Positions 4,586 through 61,656 of a stretch of 64,000 bases of DNA are shown here, one piece after another (position 1 is the first letter of the stretch; the number at the start of each line of letters is the position of its first letter). The notes beneath the pieces are model-generated. The model did not search any database. It saw nothing but the letters and a program-made list of their open reading frames with translations, and had not been told where the DNA came from. A program made the position numbers and the translations under genes. The stretch lies in the NCBI GenBank assembly GCA_965195345.1, contig OZ239628.1:192001-256000 (forward strand). The letters run 5' to 3'. This DNA comes from an uncultured Thiomicrospira sp. (GTDB lineage: Bacteria > Pseudomonadota > Gammaproteobacteria > CAKMZV01).

Positions 4586-4789
4586 AATAATTAAAATATA
4601 GTGCGTAAGAAGATTAAGCAGCTATTATATTCTTTAGAAAGATTTAATCTACAACTTTCATATTAAATTAAGAAAGAAAAATTAAAGATAATCAATTGCT
4701 TATGCTCATGTTAAAGGCCTCATTATTTTCAATAATTAGAGCATTATCCAGAGCACTACCTTTGTAACATATTGCCCAAAAAAGACTTA

Positions 4790-5569
4790 TTACTCAAAAC
4801 TGGCAGAACAAACGGGGCAAACAGGATCTTTTCCAATGCTCACGACGCGTATCTCCCAGCATAAGGTGTCGATTAACATGAGTTTCCCTCGTAATTTAGA
4901 AGATTCTTCTAAATTAATAAGCGCCTTAATCACCTCCACTGATTGCATAGAGCCCACAACGCCCACACTCGGACCCAAAACACCATTCGCTGAACAAGTA
5001 TCTGCAGCGCTTTCATCAGAATAGAGGCACCGATAACAAGCTGATTGCTCATCACGAGAGTCAAACACACTCAATTGCCCTTCAAAACCTGCTACCGCTG
5101 CACTAACAAGAGGCGTTTTCCCTAACCAACAAGCTTGATTTACCATTTGTCTCGTCTTGAAGTTGTCGCTGCAATCAAGAACACAGTCAACACCCGCAAT
5201 CAACTGACTTAAAAAATGTGTATCTACTTCCTCTTCGACTGTTTCAATAACAAGGTCTGAATTTCCCGCCATCAGACTTTCTTTTGCCGAAATCGTTTTA
5301 TATTTGCCTATATCAGCTAATGAATGGATTGGTTGTCGATGCAAGTTAGATAACTCAACTCGATCGAAATCAAGCAACGTGAAGCGACCAACCCCGCATG
5401 CCCCCAAGTATTGCGCCGCAACAGAACCCAGCCCTCCAAGACCAACAATCAACACATGGCTATTTTTTAAGACTGTTTGCCCTGCAATGTCTATTTTAGA
5501 GAGGAATATTTGCCTGCTAAAGCGAAGCAAATCTGAGTCGGTTAAAGAATGTTTTTCAAAACGCTTCAT
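4790..5569 (-). CDS. HesA/MoeB/ThiF family adenylyltransferase
   Basis: RFSRQI, GLGGLGS, DFDRVELSNLHRQ and two CxxC Zn motifs. Confidence 0.92.
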   Translation of the reverse strand: MKRFEKHSLTDSDLLRFSRQIFLSKIDIAGQTVLKNSHVLIVGLGGLGSVAAQYLGACGVGRFTLLDFDRVELSNLHRQPIHSLADIGKYKTISAKESLMAGNSDLVIETVEEEVDTHFLSQLIAGVDCVLDCSDNFKTRQMVNQACWLGKTPLVSAAVAGFEGQLSVFDSRDEQSACYRCLYSDESAADTCSANGVLGPSVGVVGSMQSVEVIKALINLEESSKLRGKLMLIDTLCWEIRVVSIGKDPVCPVCSASFE

Positions 5570-6096
5570 TTGAAGCGAATTGTAAAATCGCCTTGTGGTC
5601 GTATGAATTGCTGTCCAAGTCCTAATAGTGCATCAATTTGAGGGTTCGGTTGCTTTGTTTTTATGTTCCCCTCTAATAACGCCCCATTGCTATTGTATTG
5701 AAGCTGTGCATCGAGTTTTATTGGGCTGCCATAGTCCTTCACTGTGACATTAATTTCTTCGGTAACATTTACATTAACAATGAAATTGCCAAAATTAATT
5801 CCTGAAACATCAACTTGACTAATGAGCACTTCGTAGCCTATCGCCATATTTTTAAGAACCTCTGGTTTCCACTCCCATTCAATATTGGCAATAGAAACCT
5901 GTACGAGAGGAAGCTCCTTCGTGCTAGATATAGAAGTTTGCCCATGCCAAACATTCCCTGTTGGAACCGTTACGCTTATGGGCTTTCCTGCTAAATATCC
6001 AACAAGAAATTGTTCATATAAGAAAGCCGCAGGCATTTGTACAACCGCAGCGATCATCAATGATATGAGAAAAAACAAGCTTAGAAATATTTTCAT
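5566..6096 (-). CDS. gspN: Type II secretion protein N-like (short)
   Basis: N-terminal TM followed by PA..L and G.VW.G motifs. Follows gspM. Confidence 0.65.
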   Translation of the reverse strand: MKIFLSLFFLISLMIAAVVQMPAAFLYEQFLVGYLAGKPISVTVPTGNVWHGQTSISSTKELPLVQVSIANIEWEWKPEVLKNMAIGYEVLISQVDVSGINFGNFIVNVNVTEEINVTVKDYGSPIKLDAQLQYNSNGALLEGNIKTKQPNPQIDALLGLGQQFIRPQGDFTIRFK

Positions 6097-6590
6097 TGCC
6101 CTGCTGGTGGTAATGTGTCAGACATAGTCAACCTTACGTCAACATATCCCGAGCGTTCCGTTGCTGTGATTACTGCATCGAGAAGCGTCACCGAATATTC
6201 AAGTTGTAAACTTACAATCCAATCATTGAAATCCAAATAAGGAATTTCTTTAAGCTGCACGACTGTATTGTCGTTGGAATCTTTAAAAATACGTTGCGTA
6301 TAGCCACTAAGAGAGCGTTCAAGTAAAGTGGTTTCAACCAAAGTGGCTAAACTTTGTTGATTCGTAAGTCCTTTTCTATCGCTTAAAAGTTCGATAGCAT
6401 TTTGATTTAACCACTGATTGAAAGAGCGCTCTTTTTGAAGTTGGTTTTGTGCTTTTGTCCTTTCAATCATCGCCGGCTCCCAAAACCATAAATAACCGAG
6501 CAAAATAACCACCAGTGGAGCGCCTCCAGCAAGAATAACCTGCTCTCTTTGTTGCAATCCTTTAAACCAACTAAAAATCTTTTCCATCAT
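6093..6590 (-). CDS. gspM: Type II secretion protein M
   Basis: W..L..RE plus TM and W.P pattern, and operon position. Confidence 0.85.
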   Translation of the reverse strand: MMEKIFSWFKGLQQREQVILAGGAPLVVILLGYLWFWEPAMIERTKAQNQLQKERSFNQWLNQNAIELLSDRKGLTNQQSLATLVETTLLERSLSGYTQRIFKDSNDNTVVQLKEIPYLDFNDWIVSLQLEYSVTLLDAVITATERSGYVDVRLTMSDTLPPAGQ

Positions 6591-6702
6591 CGTCGCACGC
6601 ACAATCTGCTTGAATAAATTACACTAATAATGGCAACCAAATGCGCATTTTCCCTTACAAAGGCAATCATATCGAGAAAAACTGCTCTGTGAAAGGAGTG
6701 TT

Positions 6703-7734
6703 TCATTTTAGCTCCTTACGTATACTCAAAGAGCTACTCACTCTATCCCCATCCTGAGACAACTCCTGAACCTTGACAGTTAGCCCCTGTGTTTTTTGGA
6801 TTGCACTATTAAATGTTTCTGCTACAGAAACACTTGGCGCACTCACCCTGAGTAGCATCGAATAATTGCTGTACTTTATTGATTCAACCTTTATTTTTGA
6901 ATTTGCCTTGAGAATAGGCACTCCAGCTTGAAGCAAAGCAATCAAGCTTGTTTCTCTTAATTTTTTCGCTTTCGAAAGCCGATCAAATTGCTGACTTGCC
7001 TGGGCTTGCGGGTTAACAATTCGGCGTATGTCAGGGAAAAGTTCCTTAAAACGTGCAGTATTAATTTTGCGTTGACTGATAACACTTTCTGCCAGTGCAT
7101 TATTCTCTATTGTTAGATCACCAATATAAAAAGCCAGACCTAAAATTGATGCTGCAAAGCTTAGCCCCCATGGTTTTAACCACCGACCAAATGATATCGT
7201 GTTACCAAATCTCCCTTGTAAAAGATTGCATTGAATTCCTTTCGTATTTGCTTTTTTCGCCAGATCACTCACAAAGCCATCGAATAAAACACAATCTTCC
7301 CGACTTAATCCTGCAAGATGAAGCACCCTATCAACCAATACTTCATCTATCGCAAAGCCGGTGTCTGCATCAAGGCGAACTAATGCGCGCCCATTCTCAA
7401 TTAATAGAGCAGGTTTTCCATCGAAAGGAAGAATAAAATAATCTGGCATAAGCACATTGACAGAAGCGTTATGCTCATCCAGATATGCAACCCAATTAGA
7501 AACTTGACTGGTAACGCAGACCCACGCTATCCATTGCTTTTGATATCGATTGACGGAAAAGTGTAAAGACTCAATGTCTTGACCAAGAAGCTCTTCTAAT
7601 GCAAAAGGCGCCAATTTTATTGCTTGAACAAGGCTTTTCACAGGCACATCAACAATATGCACACTGACGCATTCGCTTGGTACGAACCCAATTTTTCCAG
7701 CAATAATTAATTGTGAGCTATTTTTTTCAGTCAT
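6703..7734 (-). CDS. gspL: Type II secretion protein L
   Basis: PFALEELL..DIE.LHF and PD motifs. The likely start ATG at 7734 overlaps the gspK stop. Confidence 0.85.
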   Translation of the reverse strand: MTEKNSSQLIIAGKIGFVPSECVSVHIVDVPVKSLVQAIKLAPFALEELLGQDIESLHFSVNRYQKQWIAWVCVTSQVSNWVAYLDEHNASVNVLMPDYFILPFDGKPALLIENGRALVRLDADTGFAIDEVLVDRVLHLAGLSREDCVLFDGFVSDLAKKANTKGIQCNLLQGRFGNTISFGRWLKPWGLSFAASILGLAFYIGDLTIENNALAESVISQRKINTARFKELFPDIRRIVNPQAQASQQFDRLSKAKKLRETSLIALLQAGVPILKANSKIKVESIKYSNYSMLLRVSAPSVSVAETFNSAIQKTQGLTVKVQELSQDGDRVSSSLSIRKELK

Positions 7735-8725
7735 CGGCCCATGCACCAAGTATCCGTGAAACCACTCTAATTTGGTTAGCATCTTTACGTTGAATTATAG
7801 ATACTGCCCTTGTCTGGGACTCATTATAGTTGACTGTAACCGCTAAACGGAAAAATTGCGTCTGTGTATTTATCACAGTGTCTGGCAACCTGGAAGATAA
7901 ATTGGCATCATCACTAAATCCTTGCATAAATTGAACCAAAGCACTTTGACTTTTGAATGCCTCTTGTTTATTTTGTCTTAGTATCACTTCTCGAACCATA
8001 TCTGCGTTAATTGCTTCATCCAACATCATTAATGTTTTCGCGTTAGCGAAGTTTGCATTGACCGCTGTTGCCACAGGAAGAGCTGTAAGATGATTTTTCA
8101 ATCTATTGTAATAATTTGACCTCATGCCAAAAACCAAACGTAACTCTGAGACATCCACCAACTTTTGATTCGCTGCTCGATAGGGCGGATCAAGACTGGA
8201 ATACGTACTATCTTCAGCCCCATTCTGCCTTGCATTATTGTCACTATCCATCCAGTCAGCAATAGAGTCTGCAAGCGTCAGCGGTATGTCAAGAAGCTCT
8301 AAAAGGCGCACCAATCGTTCGAACTCTGCTGCAATTACCTTTCCCTCGCCATCGATAATGTTATTGATATTGTAGCGTGCCCCTTCGTCAGTTAAGCTCC
8401 CTGCAATAGATCCTCCCTCAATGGGCAGCCCAGCAACCGATGAAGTCCAATCTTCTCCTGGAAAATCTGCTGTGCTTCGGCGTGCATCTTTGTTTAAGAC
8501 TCGAATAATCCAATTCTCTACACTGTATATGTAAAGCAGCCCTTGGTCTGAGCCAACTATATTGGTTGTGCGTTTGATGCTGCTTTGATACTCAAGGGTC
8601 GTTCGCGTTGCTATAACAGCGGCTATCCCTGATATTAACAAAGTCGTAATCAATGCAATCCCCCGTTGTTTCAATTTTGACCGAGATTTTTGCACCTCTG
8701 ATTTTTTCATCTTTGTATAAATCAT
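7727..8725 (-). CDS. gspK: Type II secretion minor pseudopilin K
   Basis: QRG|IALITTL prepilin site, IADWMDSD and GAED..Y motifs. Confidence 0.93.
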   Translation of the reverse strand: MIYTKMKKSEVQKSRSKLKQRGIALITTLLISGIAAVIATRTTLEYQSSIKRTTNIVGSDQGLLYIYSVENWIIRVLNKDARRSTADFPGEDWTSSVAGLPIEGGSIAGSLTDEGARYNINNIIDGEGKVIAAEFERLVRLLELLDIPLTLADSIADWMDSDNNARQNGAEDSTYSSLDPPYRAANQKLVDVSELRLVFGMRSNYYNRLKNHLTALPVATAVNANFANAKTLMMLDEAINADMVREVILRQNKQEAFKSQSALVQFMQGFSDDANLSSRLPDTVINTQTQFFRLAVTVNYNESQTRAVSIIQRKDANQIRVVSRILGAWADD

Positions 8726-52310: not shown

Positions 52311-52688
52311 TCAGAGTGCCATTATACCGTCCATTTCGACACGTGAATCCTTAGGCAGAGCGGCAACACCGATAGCAGCTCTTGCAGGATATGGTTGGTC
52401 AAAATAGCTCGCCATGATTTCATTCACAGTAGCAAAACAAGACAAATCAACAAGGAAGATATTGAGCTTAGCAATATCGTTGAGATTGCCCCCTGATGCC
52501 TCGCATACCGCTTGCAGGTTTTTAAATACTTGGTGAATTTCTGCCTCAATCGAATCGTTTACTAACGTCATTGTTTTGGGACAAAGGGGAATTTGCCCAG
52601 ACAAATAAACGGTTGACCCGACTTTAACAGCTTGGGAATAAGTGCCTACAGCGGCGGGCGCATTATTGGTTTGGATAATTTTTTTCAT
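52311..52688 (-). CDS. ridA: RidA/YjgF family deaminase
   Basis: [16 protein letters not shown] and YPARAA..V..LP motifs. Confidence 0.92.
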
Positions 52689-52830
52689 TGAGTTGCACAT
52701 TAAAATTAAGAGATTTAAAAATAGAACTGGACACCCATCTTATTATAGAAGAAAATCCATCCTTCATAGGAATACAAATAGCGGAATATGCAACAGCATA
52801 TTAACAAAAGTTGACTTTGTAGAGGCTTTA

Positions 52831-53589
52831 ATGGGAACTTTCACTGGAAATATAAGCATGTTTGTAATAAATGTTATTATCGCGGTACTTATTCTTGGCG
52901 CAGGAATTTGGGCAGCAAAAAAATTGAGCGCACTCCTCAAAAACCGACTGCAGGATAGATTTGAAGACGGGGTAATCGCACTACTAAGCAATTTGGTTTA
53001 TTGGGTAATAATTGGCACCACAAGCATTGCAGCTCTTACTCAAGTCGGCATAGAAGCAACCATCTTTATAGTAGCAATCGCGGCGGTACTTTTGATAATT
53101 GGACTTGCTTTGCAAGGCGTTCTCACGAATATAACAGCAGGCGTTCTTATAAATATTCTAAAGCCCTTTAAAACAGGCGACTATATCGAAGCGGGCGATA
53201 ACGAAGGCGTAGTACACAACATTCAGATGCTCGCAACCGAATTACTAACTCCAGACAATAGAAGAATTATTGTGCCAAACGCCCTCCTTATGCAGTCAAC
53301 AATAGTCAATCAATCATCTGAAGAGACACGCCGCATTGATTGGGTTTTTCACATAGGGCATGAAGATGATATTGATCGCGTTCGCATGGAATTGAAGCAA
53401 ATACTTGAAGCCAATGAAAAAGTGAGAAACGATTCAGAACCCTTGATATTAGTAAGCGGATTTGCCGATAAAAAAGTATCGCTCACAGTACAAGCGTGGG
53501 TGGACACGAGCGATTACTCAGAAGTGTTTTACACAATCTTTGAGCAATTTAAAAAACGGCTGGACGCATTGGGAATAAGCCTGTCTTAA
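52831..53589 (+). CDS. mscS: Small-conductance mechanosensitive channel
   Basis: 3 TMs, GLALQG.L.N..AG, PFK.GD and IVPN motifs. Start at ATG 52831. Confidence 0.92.
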   Translation: MGTFTGNISMFVINVIIAVLILGAGIWAAKKLSALLKNRLQDRFEDGVIALLSNLVYWVIIGTTSIAALTQVGIEATIFIVAIAAVLLIIGLALQGVLTNITAGVLINILKPFKTGDYIEAGDNEGVVHNIQMLATELLTPDNRRIIVPNALLMQSTIVNQSSEETRRIDWVFHIGHEDDIDRVRMELKQILEANEKVRNDSEPLILVSGFADKKVSLTVQAWVDTSDYSEVFYTIFEQFKKRLDALGISLS

Positions 53590-53660
53590 TATTTCAAATC
53601 ATTTTCAAAACGCGCTCAAAACGCTTTCAAAAGAAGCACGACCATCAGATGCGTCTAAAT

Positions 53661-53689
53661 TTAAGAAATTTGCATATTGAGAGTATAAT
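53661..53689 (+). promoter_or_regulatory. Sigma70 promoter of rnpB
   Basis: TTAAGA-17 bp-TATAAT, ending 6 nt before the RNA. Confidence 0.65.
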
Positions 53690-53695
53690 TACCCC

Positions 53696-54029
53696 GAGTT
53701 GGTCAGACAATCGCTGTACGCAGAGGAAAGTCCGGGCTTCGTAGAGCGCAATGCCAGGTAACGCCTGGGCAACGTGAGTTGACGGAAAGTGCCACAGAAA
53801 AGATACCGCCAGAAATGGTAAGGGTGAAATGGTGCGGTAAGAGCGCACCGCGGCTTTGGCAACAGAGCTGGCAAGGTAAACCCCATTGGAAGCAAGGCCA
53901 AATAGGAAGGTTCGCGAAAGCAAAGTGCGGCTCGCACTTAATCTTCGGGTAGGCTGCAAAGATGGATTTTGTGAAAAATCCACAAGATGAATGATTGTCC
54001 TAGACAGAACCCGGCTTATCGACCAACTC
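53696..54029 (+). ncRNA. rnpB: RNase P RNA (type A)
   Basis: P1 GAGTTGGTC/GACCAACTC, plus GAGGAAAGTCC, AGTGCCACAGAAA, GGTAAACCCC and ACAGAACCCGGCTTAT conserved blocks. Confidence 0.97.
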
Positions 54030-54189
54030 ACCTCATACCCAGCATACCCCTAAGAACGATAAGCGCAAGAAGTCGCCTAAGGGGATAAGAAAGGAACAGA
54101 CAAGCGCATTATTATTCAAATAACACCAAACTGAATGCCGAGAATATAACAACTTTAATGATTTTAAGCGAACTTAATAGGAATTTAGC

Positions 54190-55731
54190 ATGAAAAGCAC
54201 GCAACAACGCGCTGAATTACAACGCCACATCTGGCAAATTGCGAATGATGTTCGTGGTTCAGTGGATGGCTGGGATTTTAAGCAATATGTGCTTGGCACT
54301 TTGTTTTATCGTTTCATTAGTGAAAACTTTGCCCGTTATATGCAAGGAGGGGATAGCAGCGTTAATTATGCGGAGCTTAGCGACGATATTATTACGGATG
54401 CGATTAAGATGGACGCGATTAAAAGCAAAGGCTATATCATCTACCCCAGCCAACTATTTACCAACATCACCGCAAAAGCTCATGATAATCAAAGCCTCAA
54501 CACCGACTTAGCAAAGATATTTAACGATATTGAAAGCTCGGCAAATGGTTATCGCTCTGAGAAGGATATTAGAGGCTTGTTTGCTGATTTCGATACCACC
54601 AGTAACCGCTTGGGCAATACCGTCACTGATAAAAATACCCGACTAACTGCAGTGCTCAAAGGCGTGGAAAAACTAAACTTTGGCGAATTTGAAGACAATC
54701 AAATTGACTTATTTGGCGATGCTTATGAGTTTTTAATCTCAAATTATGCAGCAAATGCGGGTAAATCAGGGGGCGAGTTCTTTACGCCACAGCATGTCTC
54801 AAAACTCATTGCCCAGCTTGCCATGCACAAGCAAGACAAAGTGAATAAAATCTATGATCCCGCTTGTGGCTCAGGCTCGTTATTACTACAAGCTAAAAAA
54901 CAGTTTGACAATCATATTGTTAAAGAGGGGTTTTTTGGTCAAGAAATCAACCACACCACCTACAACCTTGCGCGTATGAATATGTTTTTGCATAACATCA
55001 ATTACGACAAGTTTAATATGGTGTTAGGAAACACTCTAATAGACCCCCATTTTGGCGATGATAAACCCTTTGACGCTATCGTTTCTAACCCGCCTTATTC
55101 GGTTAACTGGATTGGCTCAGACGATCCAACCCTCATCAACGATGACCGCTTTGCGCCCGCAGGAGTGCTTGCCCCCAAATCCAAAGCCGATTTCGCCTTT
55201 GTCCTGCATGCTTTGAGTTACTTATCCCCTAAAGGTCGGGCGGCAATTGTGTGCTTTCCCGGTATTTTCTATCGTGGCGGTGCAGAGCAGAAAATCCGCA
55301 AATACTTAATAGATGAAAATTATATAGAAAGCATTATTTCCCTCGCACCGAATTTATTTTACGGCACGTCAATCGCAGTCAATATCTTGGTGTTATCCAA
55401 ACACAAAACCGACAACAATACCCAATTTATTGATGCCAGTGGTTTATTTAAAAAACAAACCAACAATAACATCCTCACCGATGAACACATCACACAACTT
55501 ATGAAAGTGTTTGATAGCAAAGACAATATTGAACACTTTGCCCAATCAGTGGATTATGACGCCATCGCCAAGAACGATTACAACCTATCGGTTAGCAGCT
55601 ACGTAGAAGCCAAGGACACCCGCGAAGTCATTGATATAAACAAACTCAATGCCGAATTAAAGACCACTGTCGCCAATATAGACAAACTACGCACCGATAT
55701 TGACGCCATCGTGGCGCAAATTGACCCATGA
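54190..55731 (+). CDS. hsdM: Type I R-M methyltransferase (EcoR124/type IC-like)
   Basis: [35 protein letters not shown] and NPPY motifs. Confidence 0.97.
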
Positions 55732-57002
55732 GCGCGTTAAGTTTTTTAGAAAAACTGCTGGACGGCGCTGACGTGACGTGGCGTCCGTTGGGGGATATTT
55801 GTGAAATTAGAAATGGCTATACTCCTACAAAAAATAAGTCTGAACTTTGGAATAATGGAACTATCCCTTGGTTTCGCATGGAAGATATACGTAAACATGG
55901 TAGAGTTCTAAGCAATTCAATTCAGCATGTTACTCCGACGGCTGTAAAGTCAGGCAGATTATTTCCCGCAAATTCGATTATTATTTCTACTACCGCTACT
56001 ATTGGAGAGCATGCTTTAATTACTACAGATTTTCTTTGCAACCAACAGTTAACTGTTTTAAGTATTAAGGGTAAAGCAAAAAAACACCTTAATTATAAAT
56101 ATTTTTTTTACTACAGTTTTATACTCGGTGAGTTATTCAAAAAAAATGTTAATCCAACAGGTTTCGCACTAATTGGAACTACAAAAATAAAAACATTTCA
56201 AATCCCCATTCCATGCCCTGATAATCCTGAAAAATCGCTGGCAATACAAGCGGAGATTGTGCGCATTTTGGACAGCTTTACCGAGCTAACCACCGAGCTA
56301 ACCACCGAGCTAACCACCCGTAAAAAACAATACACCTATTACCGCGACAAACTGCTTACCTTTAAAGACAACGCAGTGGAATGGAAAACCTTAGGGGAAG
56401 TAGCAACTGTTCAACGCGGTGCTTCACCAAGACCAATAGCACAATACATAACAGATGATAAAGATGGTGTACCTTGGATCAAAATTGGTGATACCTCGTT
56501 AGGTTCTAAATATGTTCATAATACAGCTCAGAGAGTTACTAAAGAGGGAGCAAAAAAATCAAGATTATTGAAAAAAGGTGATTTTATTATTTCTAATTCA
56601 ATGAGCTTTGGTCGTCCTTATATCCTCAAAATAGATGGAGCTATTCATGATGGTTGGGCTTCAATTAGCGCATTCGAGGAATATTTAAACGCGGATTTTT
56701 TCTATCACTATTTATCATCCAACCTTGTTCAAAATTATTGGTTAAGTAAGATTAACAGTGGCTCTGTCAGCAATTTAAACGCTGATATTATTAAAGCCCT
56801 GAAAATCCCAATTCCATACTCAGACAACCCAGAGAAGTCCCTCGCAGAACAAGCACGCATTGTTGCCATCCTCGATAAATTCGATACCCTTACCCACTCC
56901 ATTAGCGAGGGTTTACCGCGTGAAATTGCATTGCGCCAAAAACAATACGAACATTACCGCGACCAATTATTAACCTTTCCCAAACCAAAGGAGTCAACGT
57001 AA
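55728..57002 (+). CDS. hsdS: Type I R-M specificity subunit (type IC)
   Basis: Two TRDs, duplicated [18 protein letters not shown] conserved regions and a central TTEL repeat. Confidence 0.97.
56280..56315 (+). repeat. 12-bp repeat x3 in the hsdS spacer (TAEL-like)
   Basis: ACCGAGCTAACC repeated three times. Confidence 0.95.
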
Positions 57003-57004
57003 TT

Positions 57005-58555
57005 ATGAAAATAACACAAGTAAGAATCTCAAATTTTCGAGGCTATAAAGAGAGAGGCTGTAAAGAGAAAAATACCATCGACTTCAACGATCTTACAGTT
57101 TTGATTGGGAAAAATGATGCAGGGAAATCAACCGTACTTGAAGCTCTTGATGTGTTTTTCAATGAAAACAAAGGAGTCATAAAATTGGAGAAGGCGGACA
57201 TCAATACAAAAGGGTCTTCGGATGGAAATAGGGTGATTTGTATTACTGTGGTTTTTGAGGATATCCCAGCTAATTTGGTGATTGATAGTACAAACGAAAC
57301 AAATCTTAAAGATGAATATTTGCTTAACAGTAACGGGCAATTGGAAATAATCAAAAAATACGATGATGCAACAAGTAGAAGCAAAGTATTTGTGTTAGCT
57401 AATCACCCCACCTACTCCGATTGTGAAGGCTTACTTCTCAAAAAACAAGGTGACTTAAAAAAAATTATAGACGACAAAAAAATTGAATGCGCAAACAGGA
57501 CAAAAAATGCAGAAATGAGGAAAGCCATTTGGTCACATTACTCAGATAAATTACAACTTCGCGATATCGAAATAGAGGTATCCAAAGAAGATGCAAAGCG
57601 TATTTGGGAGAAACTCAAAGACTACATGCCATTGTATTCCCTTTTCCAATCTGATCGAAAGAATAGTGACGGAGATAGCGAAATTCAAGACCCTATGAAA
57701 CTGGCTGTACGAGAAATATTAAAGGAAGAAGGCGTTCAATCTTCACTCAATACAGTTGCGGAAGAAGTTGGCTCTAAACTCAAAGAAGTAGCAGATAAAA
57801 CGCTGGAAAAACTACAAGAGATGAACCCAGACATTGCTAAAAAATTACAGCCTGTTATTCCTCCTGTGGGAGAGTTGAAATGGACTGATGTGTTCAAAAA
57901 TGTTGCTATTTCAGGGGATGATGGTATTTTAATCAATAAACGTGGAAGTGGTGTGAAAAGGCTGATTTTGCTTAATTTTTTCAGAGCAGAAGCAGAAAGA
58001 AGAAAAACTGAAAACAATGTACCTGATATTATTTATGCAATTGAAGAACCAGAAACGTCACAACATCCTGAACATCAGAATCAACTCATTAATGCTCTTA
58101 TCGAACTATCAGAATCAGAACATACACAAATCATTCTAACCACTCACAGCCCAGCAATAGTTAAGATGTTGGATTTTAAGTATATGAGGCTGATTGAGAA
58201 CACCGATGAATTGCGAGTCACTTCTATTCAAGAGAAAACCCTTCCATTTCCATCTTTAAATGAGGTTAATTTTTTAGCTTTTGACGATTGCAGTGAAAGC
58301 TATCACAATGAGCTTTATGGATTTATTGAGGAGAAAAAAAGGCTTTCTGAATTTAAAATAGGAAGGACAACGAAACCATACAACCAAGAGCATAGAGGTG
58401 GTAAGGAGGTCACGCAAAAAAATATAGTGGTCAGCGAATACATACGCCACCAGATACACCATCCTGAAAATAAAAGAAATCCAAAATACACTGCTGATGA
58501 AATGCGAAGTTCGATTGAAGAGATGCGGCAGTTTATACAACAGGAAAAAGGATAA
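57005..58555 (+). CDS. ABC/AAA_15 (OLD-like) ATPase with putative C-terminal HEPN domain, embedded in the hsd operon
   Basis: GKNDAGKST (Walker A), KRGSG, YAIEEPE (Walker B) and TTHSP. C-terminal [11 protein letters not shown] (Rx4H). No TOPRIM motifs seen. Confidence 0.75.
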
Positions 58556-58560
58556 CAGGC

Positions 58561-61500
58561 ATGTATACCAAACCCATCGTAGAAAGTCAAAATTTTATCA
58601 TCTTAAATCAATACACCAAGATTGAGCAAAAAAATGTTGGGTATCAAACCGAAGCCGACTTAGAAGCGGAATTGGTGCGGGATTTGGTCAGTCAAGGGTA
58701 TGAGTATTTGCCCACGCTAACTAACCAACAAACCATGTTAGTCAATGTCCGCACTCAGCTCGAGGCGTTAAATAAAGTGGCGTTTTCAGATAGTGAATGG
58801 CAGCGGTTTGTTTTAGAGTATCTGGATAAACCGAATGATAACAGCACGGATAAGAGCCGTAAAATCCATCATGATTATATTTATGACTTTGTCTTTGATG
58901 ATGGGCATATTCAAAATATTTACTTGGTAGATAAGCAAAATATCGCCCGTAATAAAGTCCAAGTTATTAAACAATTTGCACAAACTGGCAACCACGCCAA
59001 TCGCTACGATGTAACGATTTTGGTCAATGGTTTGCCCATGATACAAGTGGAACTTAAAAGGCGCGGGGTAGCCATCCGTGAGGCATTTAATCAAGTAAAT
59101 CGGTACCGCAAAGAGAGCTTTAATGCGGATAACTCATTGTTTAAATATTTGCAGATCTTTGTTATTTCAAACGGAACAGACAGCCGTTATTTCGCGAACA
59201 CCACCGAACGCGATAAGAACAGCTTTGATTTCACTATGAACTGGGCAAAATCGGATAATGGCTTGATTAAAGATTTAAAAGACTTTAGCGCCACATTTTT
59301 TCAAAAAAACACAGTGCTTAATGTCTTATTGCGCTATGCGGTGTTTGATGTATCCGATACCTTGCTGATTATGCGCCCGTATCAAATTGCCGCGACTGAG
59401 CGCATTTTATGGAAAATAAAAAGCGCCCATCAGACAAAGAGCGATAACCGCCTTGAGAGTGGTGGTTTTATTTGGCATACCACAGGCTCAGGCAAAACAC
59501 TAACCAGCTTTAAAGCAGCACGCATGGCGACTGAGCTGGATTTTATTGATAAGGTGTTCTTTGTGGTTGATCGCAAAGACCTTGATTATCAAACGATGAA
59601 AGAGTATCAGCGTTTTTCACCCGAGAGCGTTAATGGCTCTAATTCGACTGCTGGGTTAAAAAACAACCTCGATAAACAAGACAATAAAATCATCGTTACC
59701 ACCATTCAAAAGCTCAATAATTTAATAAAAAGTGAAAACAATCTCTCGATTTATACCCAGCAAGTCGTTTTTATTTTTGACGAATGCCATCGTAGCCAGT
59801 TTGGTGAAGCACAAAAGAACATTAAGAAAAAATTTAAAAAATTCTATCAATTTGGTTTTACGGGTACGCCGATTTTCCCAGAGAATGCCTTAGGTTCAGA
59901 GACGACCGCAAGCGTGTTTGGGCGTGAGCTGCATTCTTATGTAATAACGGATGCGATTAGGGATGATAAAGTCTTAAAATTCAAAGTGGATTACTGCAAT
60001 GTACGCCCAAAATCTAAAGCGATTGAAAACGAACAAGATGAGAGTAAGCTCAGTGCTGCAGAGAATAAAGCCGCCCTTTTACATCCTGATCGCATTGCAA
60101 AAGTTTCACAACATATCTTAACCCATTTTAAACAAAAAACCCACCGCCTCAATACAGGCAGCAAAGGCTTTAATGCCATGTTTGCTGTCAGCAGTGTTGA
60201 TGCTGCTAAGTCGTATTATCAAACACTAAAAAACCTACAAAAAGACAGCAATAAACCGCTTAAAGTGGCGACTATTTTTTCTTTTGCAGCGAATGAAAGC
60301 CAAGATGCAAAAGGCGATATTACGGATGAGACTTTAGAGCCTCAAGCCATGGATAGCAGCGCTAAAGAGTTTTTAAATGCAGCGATTGATGACTATAACG
60401 CCCTGTTTAAAACCAATTATGGGCTTGATGGTCAATCTTTTCAAAATTATTACCGCGACCTTGCCAAACGTGTAAAAAATCAAGATGTTGATTTGTTGAT
60501 TGTAGTGGGCATGTTCTTAACAGGGTTTGATGCGCCGACACTTAATACCTTATTTGTGGATAAAAACCTACGCTATCACGGTTTGATACAGGCTTATTCA
60601 CGCACCAATCGCATTTATGACAACACCAAGGCAGTCGGCAATATCATTAACTTTCGCAACTTAGACCAAGCCACAAAAGATGCTATTACCTTGTTTGGCG
60701 ATGAAAATACCGCAAATATCGTCTTGGAAAAAAGCTATAAAGAATACATGGAGGGTTTTACGGATGCCTCAACTGGAGAGGCACGGCGTGGTTATTTAGC
60801 GGTGGTTGCAGAATTAGAGCAACGCTTTCCCGATCCTAACGAGATTGCAGGTGAGGAGGATAAAAAAGAATTTGCCAAGTTATTTGGTGAATATTTACGC
60901 ACGGAGAATCTTTTACAAAATCATGATCAGTTTGCCCGATTGCAAGACCTGCAAAAAATAGATACTCATAATATAGAAGCGGTTGCAGCGTTTAAACAAG
61001 AACACAGCCTAAGCGATGATGATTTAACGGAGATGCAGGCAATTAAAGTGCCCAACGAACGCACCACACAAGATTATCGTTCAACCTATAACGATATTCG
61101 TGAATGGTTTCGCCGTGAAAAATCCGCCAATGAACAAGACGGCTCAAGTATCGATTGGAAGGAGGTGGTTTTTGAGGTGGAATTACTCAAATCACAAGAG
61201 ATTGGCTTGGATTATATTTTTGCGTTAATTGCTGAAAAAAATCATGCATCAAATGATAAAACAGCCCTGATAAAAGAAGTGCGCCGTTCGATTCGTGCGA
61301 GTGTTGGCAACCGTGCTAAAGAAGGGTTGCTTGTTGACTTTATCAACCAAACCGATTTAGGTAAAATGCCTGATAAAGCCGATCTAATTGACAATTTTTA
61401 TTGCTTTGCTCGGGCGGAACAACAACGCGAGATGAGAGAGTTAATTGATGCTGATGAACTAAATTTGGACGCTGCTAAGCGTTATATTACCACTTCATTA

Positions 61501-61656
61501 GAGCAACAACATGTCAGTGAAGATGGCACAGAACTCAACGAATTATTGCCCAAAATGAGCCCGCTTAATCCGCAATACCTAACCAAAAAACAAGCAGTTT
61601 TTCAAAAGATTGTCGCTTTTGTTGACAAGTTTAAAGGGGTGGGTGGGCAGATTTGA
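58561..61656 (+). CDS. hsdR: Type I R-M restriction subunit
   Basis: [42 protein letters not shown] and QAYSRTNR motifs. Confidence 0.97.

Follow-up and report, generated by a model that had tools for sequence, protein, structure and literature searches.

The gene examined here is a 516-amino acid (aa) open reading frame (ORF; P0001) on the plus strand, at 57005..58555 of a 64,000-nucleotide (nt) stretch from an uncultured Thiomicrospira sp. (GCA_965195345.1, contig OZ239628.1, positions 192,001 to 256,000 of the forward strand), which we call the window and within which its coordinates are given. It encodes an OLD-type ABC ATPase with a C-terminal HEPN-like domain and lies inside a type I restriction-modification (R-M) operon whose other genes, all on the plus strand, are hsdM (513 aa; 54190..55731; Pfam N6_Mtase at E 1e-119 together with HsdM_N, and NCBIfam hsdM at E 7.5e-196), hsdS (424 aa with two target-recognition halves; 55728..57002; Pfam Methylase_S at E 1e-47 in two stretches, and PADLOC Specificity_I at E 5e-151), and a type IC-like hsdR (1031 aa; 58561..61656; Pfam HSDR_N, SWI2_SNF2, T1R_D3-like, and, at E 6e-65, EcoR124_C). 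The EcoR124_C domain of HsdR is a mark of the type IC kind, and the Pfam matches of the three Hsd proteins bear out the type IC context proposed in a preliminary description of this DNA. Direct reading of the sequence also confirmed the tight packing and the motifs reported there: the TAA stop codon of hsdS (57000-57002) is followed after a 2-nt gap by the ATG of the 516-aa ORF at 57005, an AAGGAG ribosome-binding site lies 11 nt 5' of this ATG (56988..56993, plus strand), and the TAA of the ORF (58553-58555) is followed after a 5-nt gap by the ATG of hsdR at 58561. The ORF is not a chance reading frame, since its product matches Pfam AAA_15 at E 1.8e-86, and the gene is present as a single copy in the host genome.

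The slot between hsdS and hsdR in sister genomes

The preliminary description had assigned the gene to the slot of prrC, the anticodon nuclease gene that lies within the type IC EcoprrI hsd operon. This assignment proved to be literally true in a genome of the same genus (G004), whose orthologous operon (HsdM 77% and HsdR 71% identical) carries a 386-aa PrrC (PADLOC PrrC at E 1.2e-134, Pfam AAA_13) between a short hsdS ORF and hsdR, with PrrC and hsdS encoded on the minus strand of locus L121 (G004:C1:366000-382000) at 7103-8263 and 8276-8683, respectively. The hsdS ORF of this congener is only 135 aa long and may be truncated, and a Mrr-like gene with a HARE-HTH domain is located downstream of its hsdR. 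In another congener (G003; locus L122, G003:C1:543000-557000), an AdoMet_dc-like ORF (4693-5067) and a Fic/DOC gene (5562-6644, plus strand) lie between hsdM and a split hsdS, the parts of which are two ORFs (6622-7284 and 7403-7990). Given that PrrC, Fic, and the 516-aa gene are found in them, the related operons of this one genus carry alternative cassettes. Among other genomes of the host's family, a relative of the 516-aa protein at E ≤ 1e-20 was found in none of four.

The occupant of the slot in the window does not belong to the PrrC/RloC sequence family, as had been surmised: the eight Pfam families with matches at E ≤ 0.01 did not include AAA_13, BLASTP against the true PrrC (P0271) aligned the Walker B/H-loop stretch only, at E 0.046, and PrrC was not among the best 25 of 134 PADLOC matches. 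Its position nonetheless raises the explanation that it works as PrrC does: HsdMSR would bind and silence it and, once the restriction enzyme is inactivated by a phage peptide or a DNA mimic, would set it free as an anticodon nuclease. Both the translational coupling expected within the operon from the 2-nt and 5-nt gaps and the presence of a true PrrC at the corresponding place in the congener's orthologous operon speak for such a guard, on which the wider family also bears.

The ATPase module and the C-terminal domain

Residues 1-397 (57005..58195, plus strand) form an ATPase module of the AAA_15/OLD type, as identified by the AAA_15 match, a plasmid relative, and Foldseek. AAA_15 spans residues 1-386 from end to end, and DUF2813 was also matched. 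A Foldseek search with the full-length AlphaFold model (pLDDT, or predicted local distance difference test score, of 76.7) returned first the Thermus OLD protein 6p74 (E 7e-13) and then GajA and the retron Eco8 effector, and the top PADLOC rows comprised an AAA_15-like AriA model (residues 1-386, E 4e-75), Old (E 1e-28), and many GajA models, all covering the ATPase only. No TOPRIM model in Pfam matched the protein at E ≤ 0.01, in agreement with the TOPRIM-free OLD/AAA_15-type ATPase recognised at the outset. The full ABC-ATPase motif set (Walker A, signature R313-G316, Walker B with E348, and H381) is kept across 31 homologues. The Walker A motif (GKNDAGKST, G35-T43; 57107..57133, plus strand) has G35, N37, D38, G40, K41, and S42 invariant in the 31 sequences; the ABC signature region (NKRGSGVKR, N311-R319; 57935..57961, plus strand) is invariant in these sequences, with G316 also invariant in 26 divergent members; Walker B with the catalytic Glu (IIYAIEEPE, residues 342-350; 58028..58054, plus strand) has E348 and E350 invariant in the divergent members; and the H-loop (TTHS, T379-S382; 58139..58150, plus strand) is invariant in the 31.

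The same alignment revealed a strongly conserved loop at residues 213-232 (57641..57700, plus strand), in which 16 of 20 positions are invariant and the remaining four are at least 90% conserved; its residues 216-228 are modelled at pLDDT <50. The pattern LFQSDR..D.D.E.Q.PMK of this loop is common to the 516-aa protein and a 608-aa plasmid relative, and the loop may serve this OLD clade in regulation or sensing. A five-residue insertion after the first strand (ERGCK, residues 17-21; 57053-57067) is found in the window protein only, being absent from all 30 other aligned homologues.

The nearest plasmid relatives align with residues 1 to ~400 only. Two of them were opened and are 608-aa single genes; the first is 41% identical to the 516-aa protein over residues 1-397 (401 aa aligned, E 1e-99), and the second carries OLD-like_TOPRIM beyond an apparent swap point near residue 398. 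No PLSDB plasmid record contained a match that takes in the C-terminal part, or tail, of the 516-aa protein. From these sequence comparisons, the protein looks like the product of an effector exchange in an OLD protein near residue 398, and we regard its tail as the effector mainly because the ATPase is shared with TOPRIM-type relatives and the exchange falls at this point.

The tail consists of a C-terminal domain at residues 408-516 (58226..58552, plus strand) that the models of Pfam, NCBIfam, PADLOC 2.0, and PHROGs all leave uncovered. Its AlphaFold2 model, built from these 109 residues alone (pLDDT 88.8, predicted TM-score 0.80), has four helices with a beta-hairpin insert: helix 1 at 418-426, helix 2 at 431-443, a short helix and the beta-hairpin at 447-475, helix 3 at 476-485, a loop, and helix 4 at 497-515. 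The length agrees with the ~110-aa domain first described, and the YHNELYG motif reported in it (433-439), like an 11-residue motif at 479-489, is invariant or nearly so in 63 C-terminal domains. A tail-only search of 1.84 billion representatives yielded 410 clusters at E ≤ 1e-3. The tail lies at most 40 residues from the C-terminus in 147 of the 150 best representatives, 51 of which are at least 430 aa long, and 44 of these 51 align back to the Walker A region; the shorter tail-bearing representatives among the 150 may be fragments. One protein with an apparent N-terminal copy of the tail (P0152) was rejected as a fragment with a low-complexity tail.

HEPN domains are defined as units of 100-120 aa with a four-helix up-down fold and frequent inserts between helices 2 and 3, with Rx4-6H at the end of helix 3, where N, D, or H directly follows the R, and with an acidic residue in helix 2 that is often conserved (PMC3710099). 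The predicted tail has the corresponding length and fold, with 109 aa, four core helices, and the insert at 447-475 between helices 2 and 3. It contains the Rx4H motif R481-[H/N]482-x-x-H485-H486, with a polar residue after the R (RHQIHH in the window protein; 58445..58462, plus strand), at the end of predicted helix 3, as in the HEPN description: the helix ends at H485, and H486-P-E-N opens the loop toward helix 497-515. An acidic residue, E436 (58310..58312, plus strand), is located in predicted helix 2 and is invariant in 63 sequences, and the Ex3[KR] form of the motif is absent. The preliminary description had made conservation of Rx4H a point on which its HEPN proposal would stand or fall, and R481, H485, and H486 are indeed invariant both in the 63 close tails and in 26 full-length members that diverge to as little as 21% overall identity. 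N492 is likewise invariant in the divergent members, residue 482 is H or N in them, and E420, E436, G439, P487, E488, N489, and S503 are at least 90% conserved.

Of the HEPN proposal itself, the Rx4H motif, the polar residue after its R, and the HEPN-like placement held up, but neither fold nor profile searches gave a significant match to a HEPN protein. Foldseek searches of PDB (best E 0.6) and BFVD with the tail gave nothing at E ≤ 0.001, and the ESM Atlas gave unnamed clusters only. In hhalign comparisons with 29 HepT-like and 23 PF05168 sequences, the probabilities did not exceed 0.2%, a result without power since the HepT-versus-HEPN control was equally blank, and a prediction of the tail as a homodimer (two copies) scored an uninformative 0.00. 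Weighing the motif and its setting against these searches, we think it likely that the tail is a HEPN-type RNase.

The same conservation bears on two other accounts of the tail. It might be a different nuclease or hydrolase, for instance with a metal-dependent His/Glu site acting on DNA, for which H434, E436, H482, H485, H486, and E488 could serve as ligands, and the protein would then be a classical OLD-like DNase. In divergent members, however, H434 is replaced by F or L and H482 by N, and R481 is invariant, a pattern that fits Rx4H better than a metal triad, and the hairpin lacks the invariant His or Asn of the HNH kind; we give this account very little credence. A non-catalytic tail, serving as a binding, sensor, or oligomerisation module, would instead leave an ATPase-only protein that does not kill cells and that might, for example, regulate or assist neighbouring systems or DNA transactions. 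This would accord with the lack of a significant match between the tail and any nuclease, with the housekeeping surroundings of many homologue loci, and with the existence of some HEPN domains that are non-catalytic binders (PMC3710099). Yet non-catalytic HEPN domains lack the conserved R, H, and acidic residues (PMC3710099), whereas R481, H485, H486, N492, and E436 show little or no variation at 21% overall identity; furthermore, the tail occupies the position of the TOPRIM nuclease of one plasmid relative, and 4 of 80 sampled copies of the gene are split, as might be expected of costly or toxic genes. We consider a non-catalytic tail improbable.

Spread, surroundings, and phylogeny of the family

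The family is large and widely spread by horizontal transfer. Relatives at E ≤ 0.001 made up 7865 of 8000 scored candidates, and a relative was encoded in at least 584 of 598 pattern hits on contigs representing one genome per species. The best 120 relatives, from many phyla, are 505-535 aa long and 60-68% identical to the 516-aa protein at 98-100% query coverage, and they bear generic names only, such as 'AAA family ATPase' or 'OLD family endonuclease'. The one full-length relative among 50,697 phage records was rejected as evidence of carriage by phages, since it lies on an UNVERIFIED 8-kb fragment without phage-like Pfam matches.

Genomic surroundings were surveyed in a sample of 80 homologue loci, with the two genes on each side scanned against Pfam at E ≤ 1e-10 (249 proteins); about 16 loci lie on short contigs with little or no flank. 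No conserved partner gene was found among 351 neighbour proteins of the 80 loci, the largest clusters being HsdM (6 loci), HsdR (5), and HsdS (4). Linkage of the homologues to hsd genes, which the preliminary description had anticipated, was not general: type I genes lie near the homologue in only 9 of 80 loci (L002, L008, L009, L057, L064, L065, L066, L078, and L080). In all nine, the homologue is upstream of hsdR on the same strand, and hsdM or hsdS is upstream of the homologue in six (L009, L057, L064, L065, L066, and L080), including the gene order M-S-X-R in a Campylobacter metagenome-assembled genome (L064); on the contigs of L002, L008, and L078, neither an M nor an S gene is seen. The type I kinds differ, with EcoR124_C in the window and T1RH-like_C in L065.

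Another 11 loci adjoin other modification-based systems, so that 20 of 80 have some R-M or bacteriophage exclusion (BREX) neighbour. These systems are BREX with PglZ/BrxL (L001), MmeI (L004), the type II systems BsoBI (L017), TdeIII with its methylase (L026), XamI (L059), BglII (L072), and AlwI (L073 and L077), type ISP (L040), type III (L075), and a methylase with RmuC, plus AbiE (L018). The gene has thus been embedded repeatedly in defence operons based on DNA modification. Elsewhere in the sample, homologues are found near integrases, insertion sequence elements, Tn7-like TnsD, conjugation genes, or toxin-antitoxin genes.

Several further features of these loci were recorded. The type I operons that carry a homologue often have other embedded genes as well, namely RhuM, Fic-C, a reverse transcriptase with GmrSD, Schlafen, DUF4917, and YhcG; at L057 10531-13785, L009 7820-8884 and 10690-11166, L078 1518-2885, and L080 7631-8854 and 10701-13034, such extras comprise the reverse transcriptase with GmrSD, RhuM with a SoFic-like C-terminal piece, Schlafen/AlbA_2, DUF4917, and an AAA_21 ATPase. 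The four split copies, each divided into two ORFs by a frameshift or stop, are at L005, L032, L044, and L066, and one of the four is a type I-embedded copy in a Helicobacter genome. In two Lachnospiraceae loci (L060 6233-8149 and L069 5212-7161), the homologue lies directly downstream of a TnsD/TniQ gene, which suggests that a Tn7-like transposon carries it as cargo. In Nitrococcus mobilis (L023 3308-7930), a ribonucleotide reductase gene located two genes upstream of the homologue contains an intein with a LAGLIDADG domain. In the window itself, a 128-aa ORF without a Pfam match (53645-54031, minus strand) lies between a MscS-like gene and hsdM. This MscS-like ORF (52642-53589, plus strand) and a RidA-like ORF (52311-52700, minus strand) overlap by 59 nt as called, and one start codon was therefore probably called too early.

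A FastTree phylogeny was inferred from 71 full-length rows, excluding the four split and six partial copies. The label 'any R-M/BREX neighbour' changes 12 times on the tree against a shuffled mean of 17.5, and the 'type I' label 6 times against a shuffled mean of 8.6, with 1 of 300 shuffles as low in each case; these statistics are to be read with the caveats that related rows share labels and that they stand without a random-gene control. The gene of the window falls in a seven-row clade (local support 94) that includes several phyla, and six of the seven rows are linked, to type I genes in the window, L002, L008, and L009, to BREX in L001, and to MmeI in L004; the seventh, L019, stops at a contig edge. 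One 11-row clade has no linked members at all. Since linkage clusters on the tree in this way, R-M embedding is a trait of some lineages, including that of the window, and not of the whole family.

These data return us to a PrrC-type guard silenced by HsdMSR. The consistent placement upstream of hsdR on the same strand in nine of nine type I-linked loci is what such a guard would lead one to expect, as is the type I linkage of four of the seven rows in the window's clade. Set against this are the 71 of 80 loci without a nearby type I gene, the BREX (L001) and MmeI (L004) contexts of close relatives within that clade, and the difference between the type I kinds of the window and L065. A conserved Hsd-binding surface is unlikely when close relatives sit beside BREX, MmeI, and type I systems of differing kinds, and RloC shows that ATPase-RNase fusions can regulate themselves (PMC3458546; PMC3710099). 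We regard silencing by HsdMSR as unlikely.

Known systems and a candidate mode of action

The 516-aa protein resembles PrrC in combining an ABC ATPase with a small C-terminal RNase-type domain bearing R and H residues, and, within a type IC-like operon, in lying between hsdS and hsdR. It differs in that its ATPase belongs to the OLD/AAA_15 clade and that of PrrC to AAA_13, in the contiguous Rx4H of its tail, and in that most of its homologues are not hsd-linked, and the two proteins have no sequence similarity past Walker B and the H-loop. With RloC it would share the plan of a self-contained ATPase-HEPN fusion, mostly unlinked to R-M and thought to be self-regulating. RloC is described as having a Rad50-like, AAA_13-type ATPase with a coiled-coil and zinc hook (PMC3710099; PMC3458546); neither a coiled-coil, a zinc hook, nor an AAA_13 match was seen in the 516-aa protein (Pfam at E ≤ 0.01, and the model). 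The single-chain OLD nucleases (P2 Old, Thermus OLD 6p74, and the 608-aa plasmid relatives) have the same ATPase and are likewise single-gene modules, but in the 516-aa protein TOPRIM is absent and the ~110-aa tail stands in its place from about residue 398.

An OLD-type ATPase as the presumed sensor is also common to PARIS (AriA/AriB) and Gabija GajA. Two reports name the anti-restriction protein Ocr as the trigger of PARIS and describe PARIS as frequently located inside BREX or R-M systems (NAR 2026 gkag035; Payne et al. preprint). In contrast to PARIS and Gabija, the effector of the 516-aa protein is fused and is not TOPRIM; neither AriB/DUF4435 nor GajB lies beside the gene, whose adjacent neighbours are hsdS and hsdR and whose homologues lack a conserved partner in 80 loci, and the AriA chains in PDB align with the protein over 48 residues only, at E 4e-5. 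The same reports list TOPRIM, HNH, PD-(D/E)XK, and PIN nucleases as the companions of OLD-type ATPases (NAR 2026 gkag035; Payne et al. preprint), and the known ABC ATPase-HEPN fusions named in the HEPN survey include PrrC, RloC, APECO1_4465, and ERFG_01251 (PMC3710099). The ERFG_01251 family is described there as having an N-terminal ABC ATPase and a C-terminal, classical MNT-type HEPN domain with Rx4-6H, and as occurring near CRISPR-Cas in Neisseria and Kingella (PMC3710099, Anantharaman et al. 2013). Our literature search, whose coverage did not extend to the classification of ABC ATPases by Krishnan et al. 2020, yielded no account of this tail being joined to an OLD-type ATPase. The combination is probably an unnamed family, with ERFG_01251 set beside it by description only and no Pfam HEPN model matching the tail at E ≤ 10.

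On the whole we lean towards viewing the 516-aa protein as a self-contained abortive RNase analogous to PrrC and RloC, in which TOPRIM would have been replaced by a HEPN-like RNase domain on an OLD-type ATPase. The abortive mechanism is proposed by analogy with PrrC and RloC, with P2 Old, which a 2026 preprint reports to be an abortive tRNase, and with PARIS and Gabija, whose OLD-type ATPases are reported to respond to Ocr (NAR 2026 gkag035; Payne et al. preprint). The ATPase and its inserts would keep the RNase tail inactive until a phage cue frees it; the freed tail would then cut RNA, most likely tRNA, presumably without a metal ion, so that translation would stop and the infection would be aborted. 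The leading guess for the trigger is a phage counter-measure against R-M or BREX that is shared among these systems, such as a DNA mimic. That the protein senses anti-restriction proteins and cleaves tRNA, as the preliminary description suggested, we infer purely by analogy. Physical masking by HsdMSR would probably not be needed, as the occurrence of relatives in differing type I kinds, BREX, and MmeI contexts, with most standing alone, makes it less likely than self-regulation through an intrinsic sensor. In the host genome, the protein would act as a second-line cassette in the slot held by PrrC in the sister genome.

Several results count against an abortive HEPN-type RNase of this kind. 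Pfam searches at E ≤ 10 with 63 tails taken singly gave no family in more than two members and none that was HEPN, and a profile search of the tail against PDB returned nothing HEPN-like, its two matches (E 0.055 and 0.16) being unrelated. The plasmid relative aligned across the ATPase has no TOPRIM match at E ≤ 0.001, so that TOPRIM is present in one of the two scanned. As to context, the R-M/BREX linkage counts stand without a random-gene enrichment control, and many homologues lie beside housekeeping genes (hrcA/grpE, hisD, EF-G, mutL, and feoB), for which reason context does not prove a defence role. No experiment on any family member was found in the literature searched.

Modules that join an ABC ATPase to a nuclease (OLD, Gabija, PARIS, Septu, PrrC, and RloC) are one of the main themes in the abortive immunity of bacteria, and the contribution of this family is a compact HEPN-like effector, lacking an existing model, on an OLD-type sensor. 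The family is very abundant and strongly conserved, at 55-68% identity across phyla, but the source names seen for it are all generic. The natural exchange of PrrC, Fic, and the 516-aa gene in related type IC operons of one genus makes the idea of a second-line 'guard slot' directly testable with a one-gene system. We put forward as a tentative and rather doubtful generalisation that OLD-HEPN fusions form a large, unnamed class of single-gene anti-phage tRNases, occurring in more than 500 species of Bacteria and at least one archaeon, that within R-M and BREX operons they and PrrC, Fic, or other cassettes can replace one another in the guard slot, and that their OLD ATPase senses counter-defences such as DNA mimics. 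If this were true, the lineage to which the gene of the window belongs would serve type I, MmeI-type, and BREX systems alike as a general back-up.

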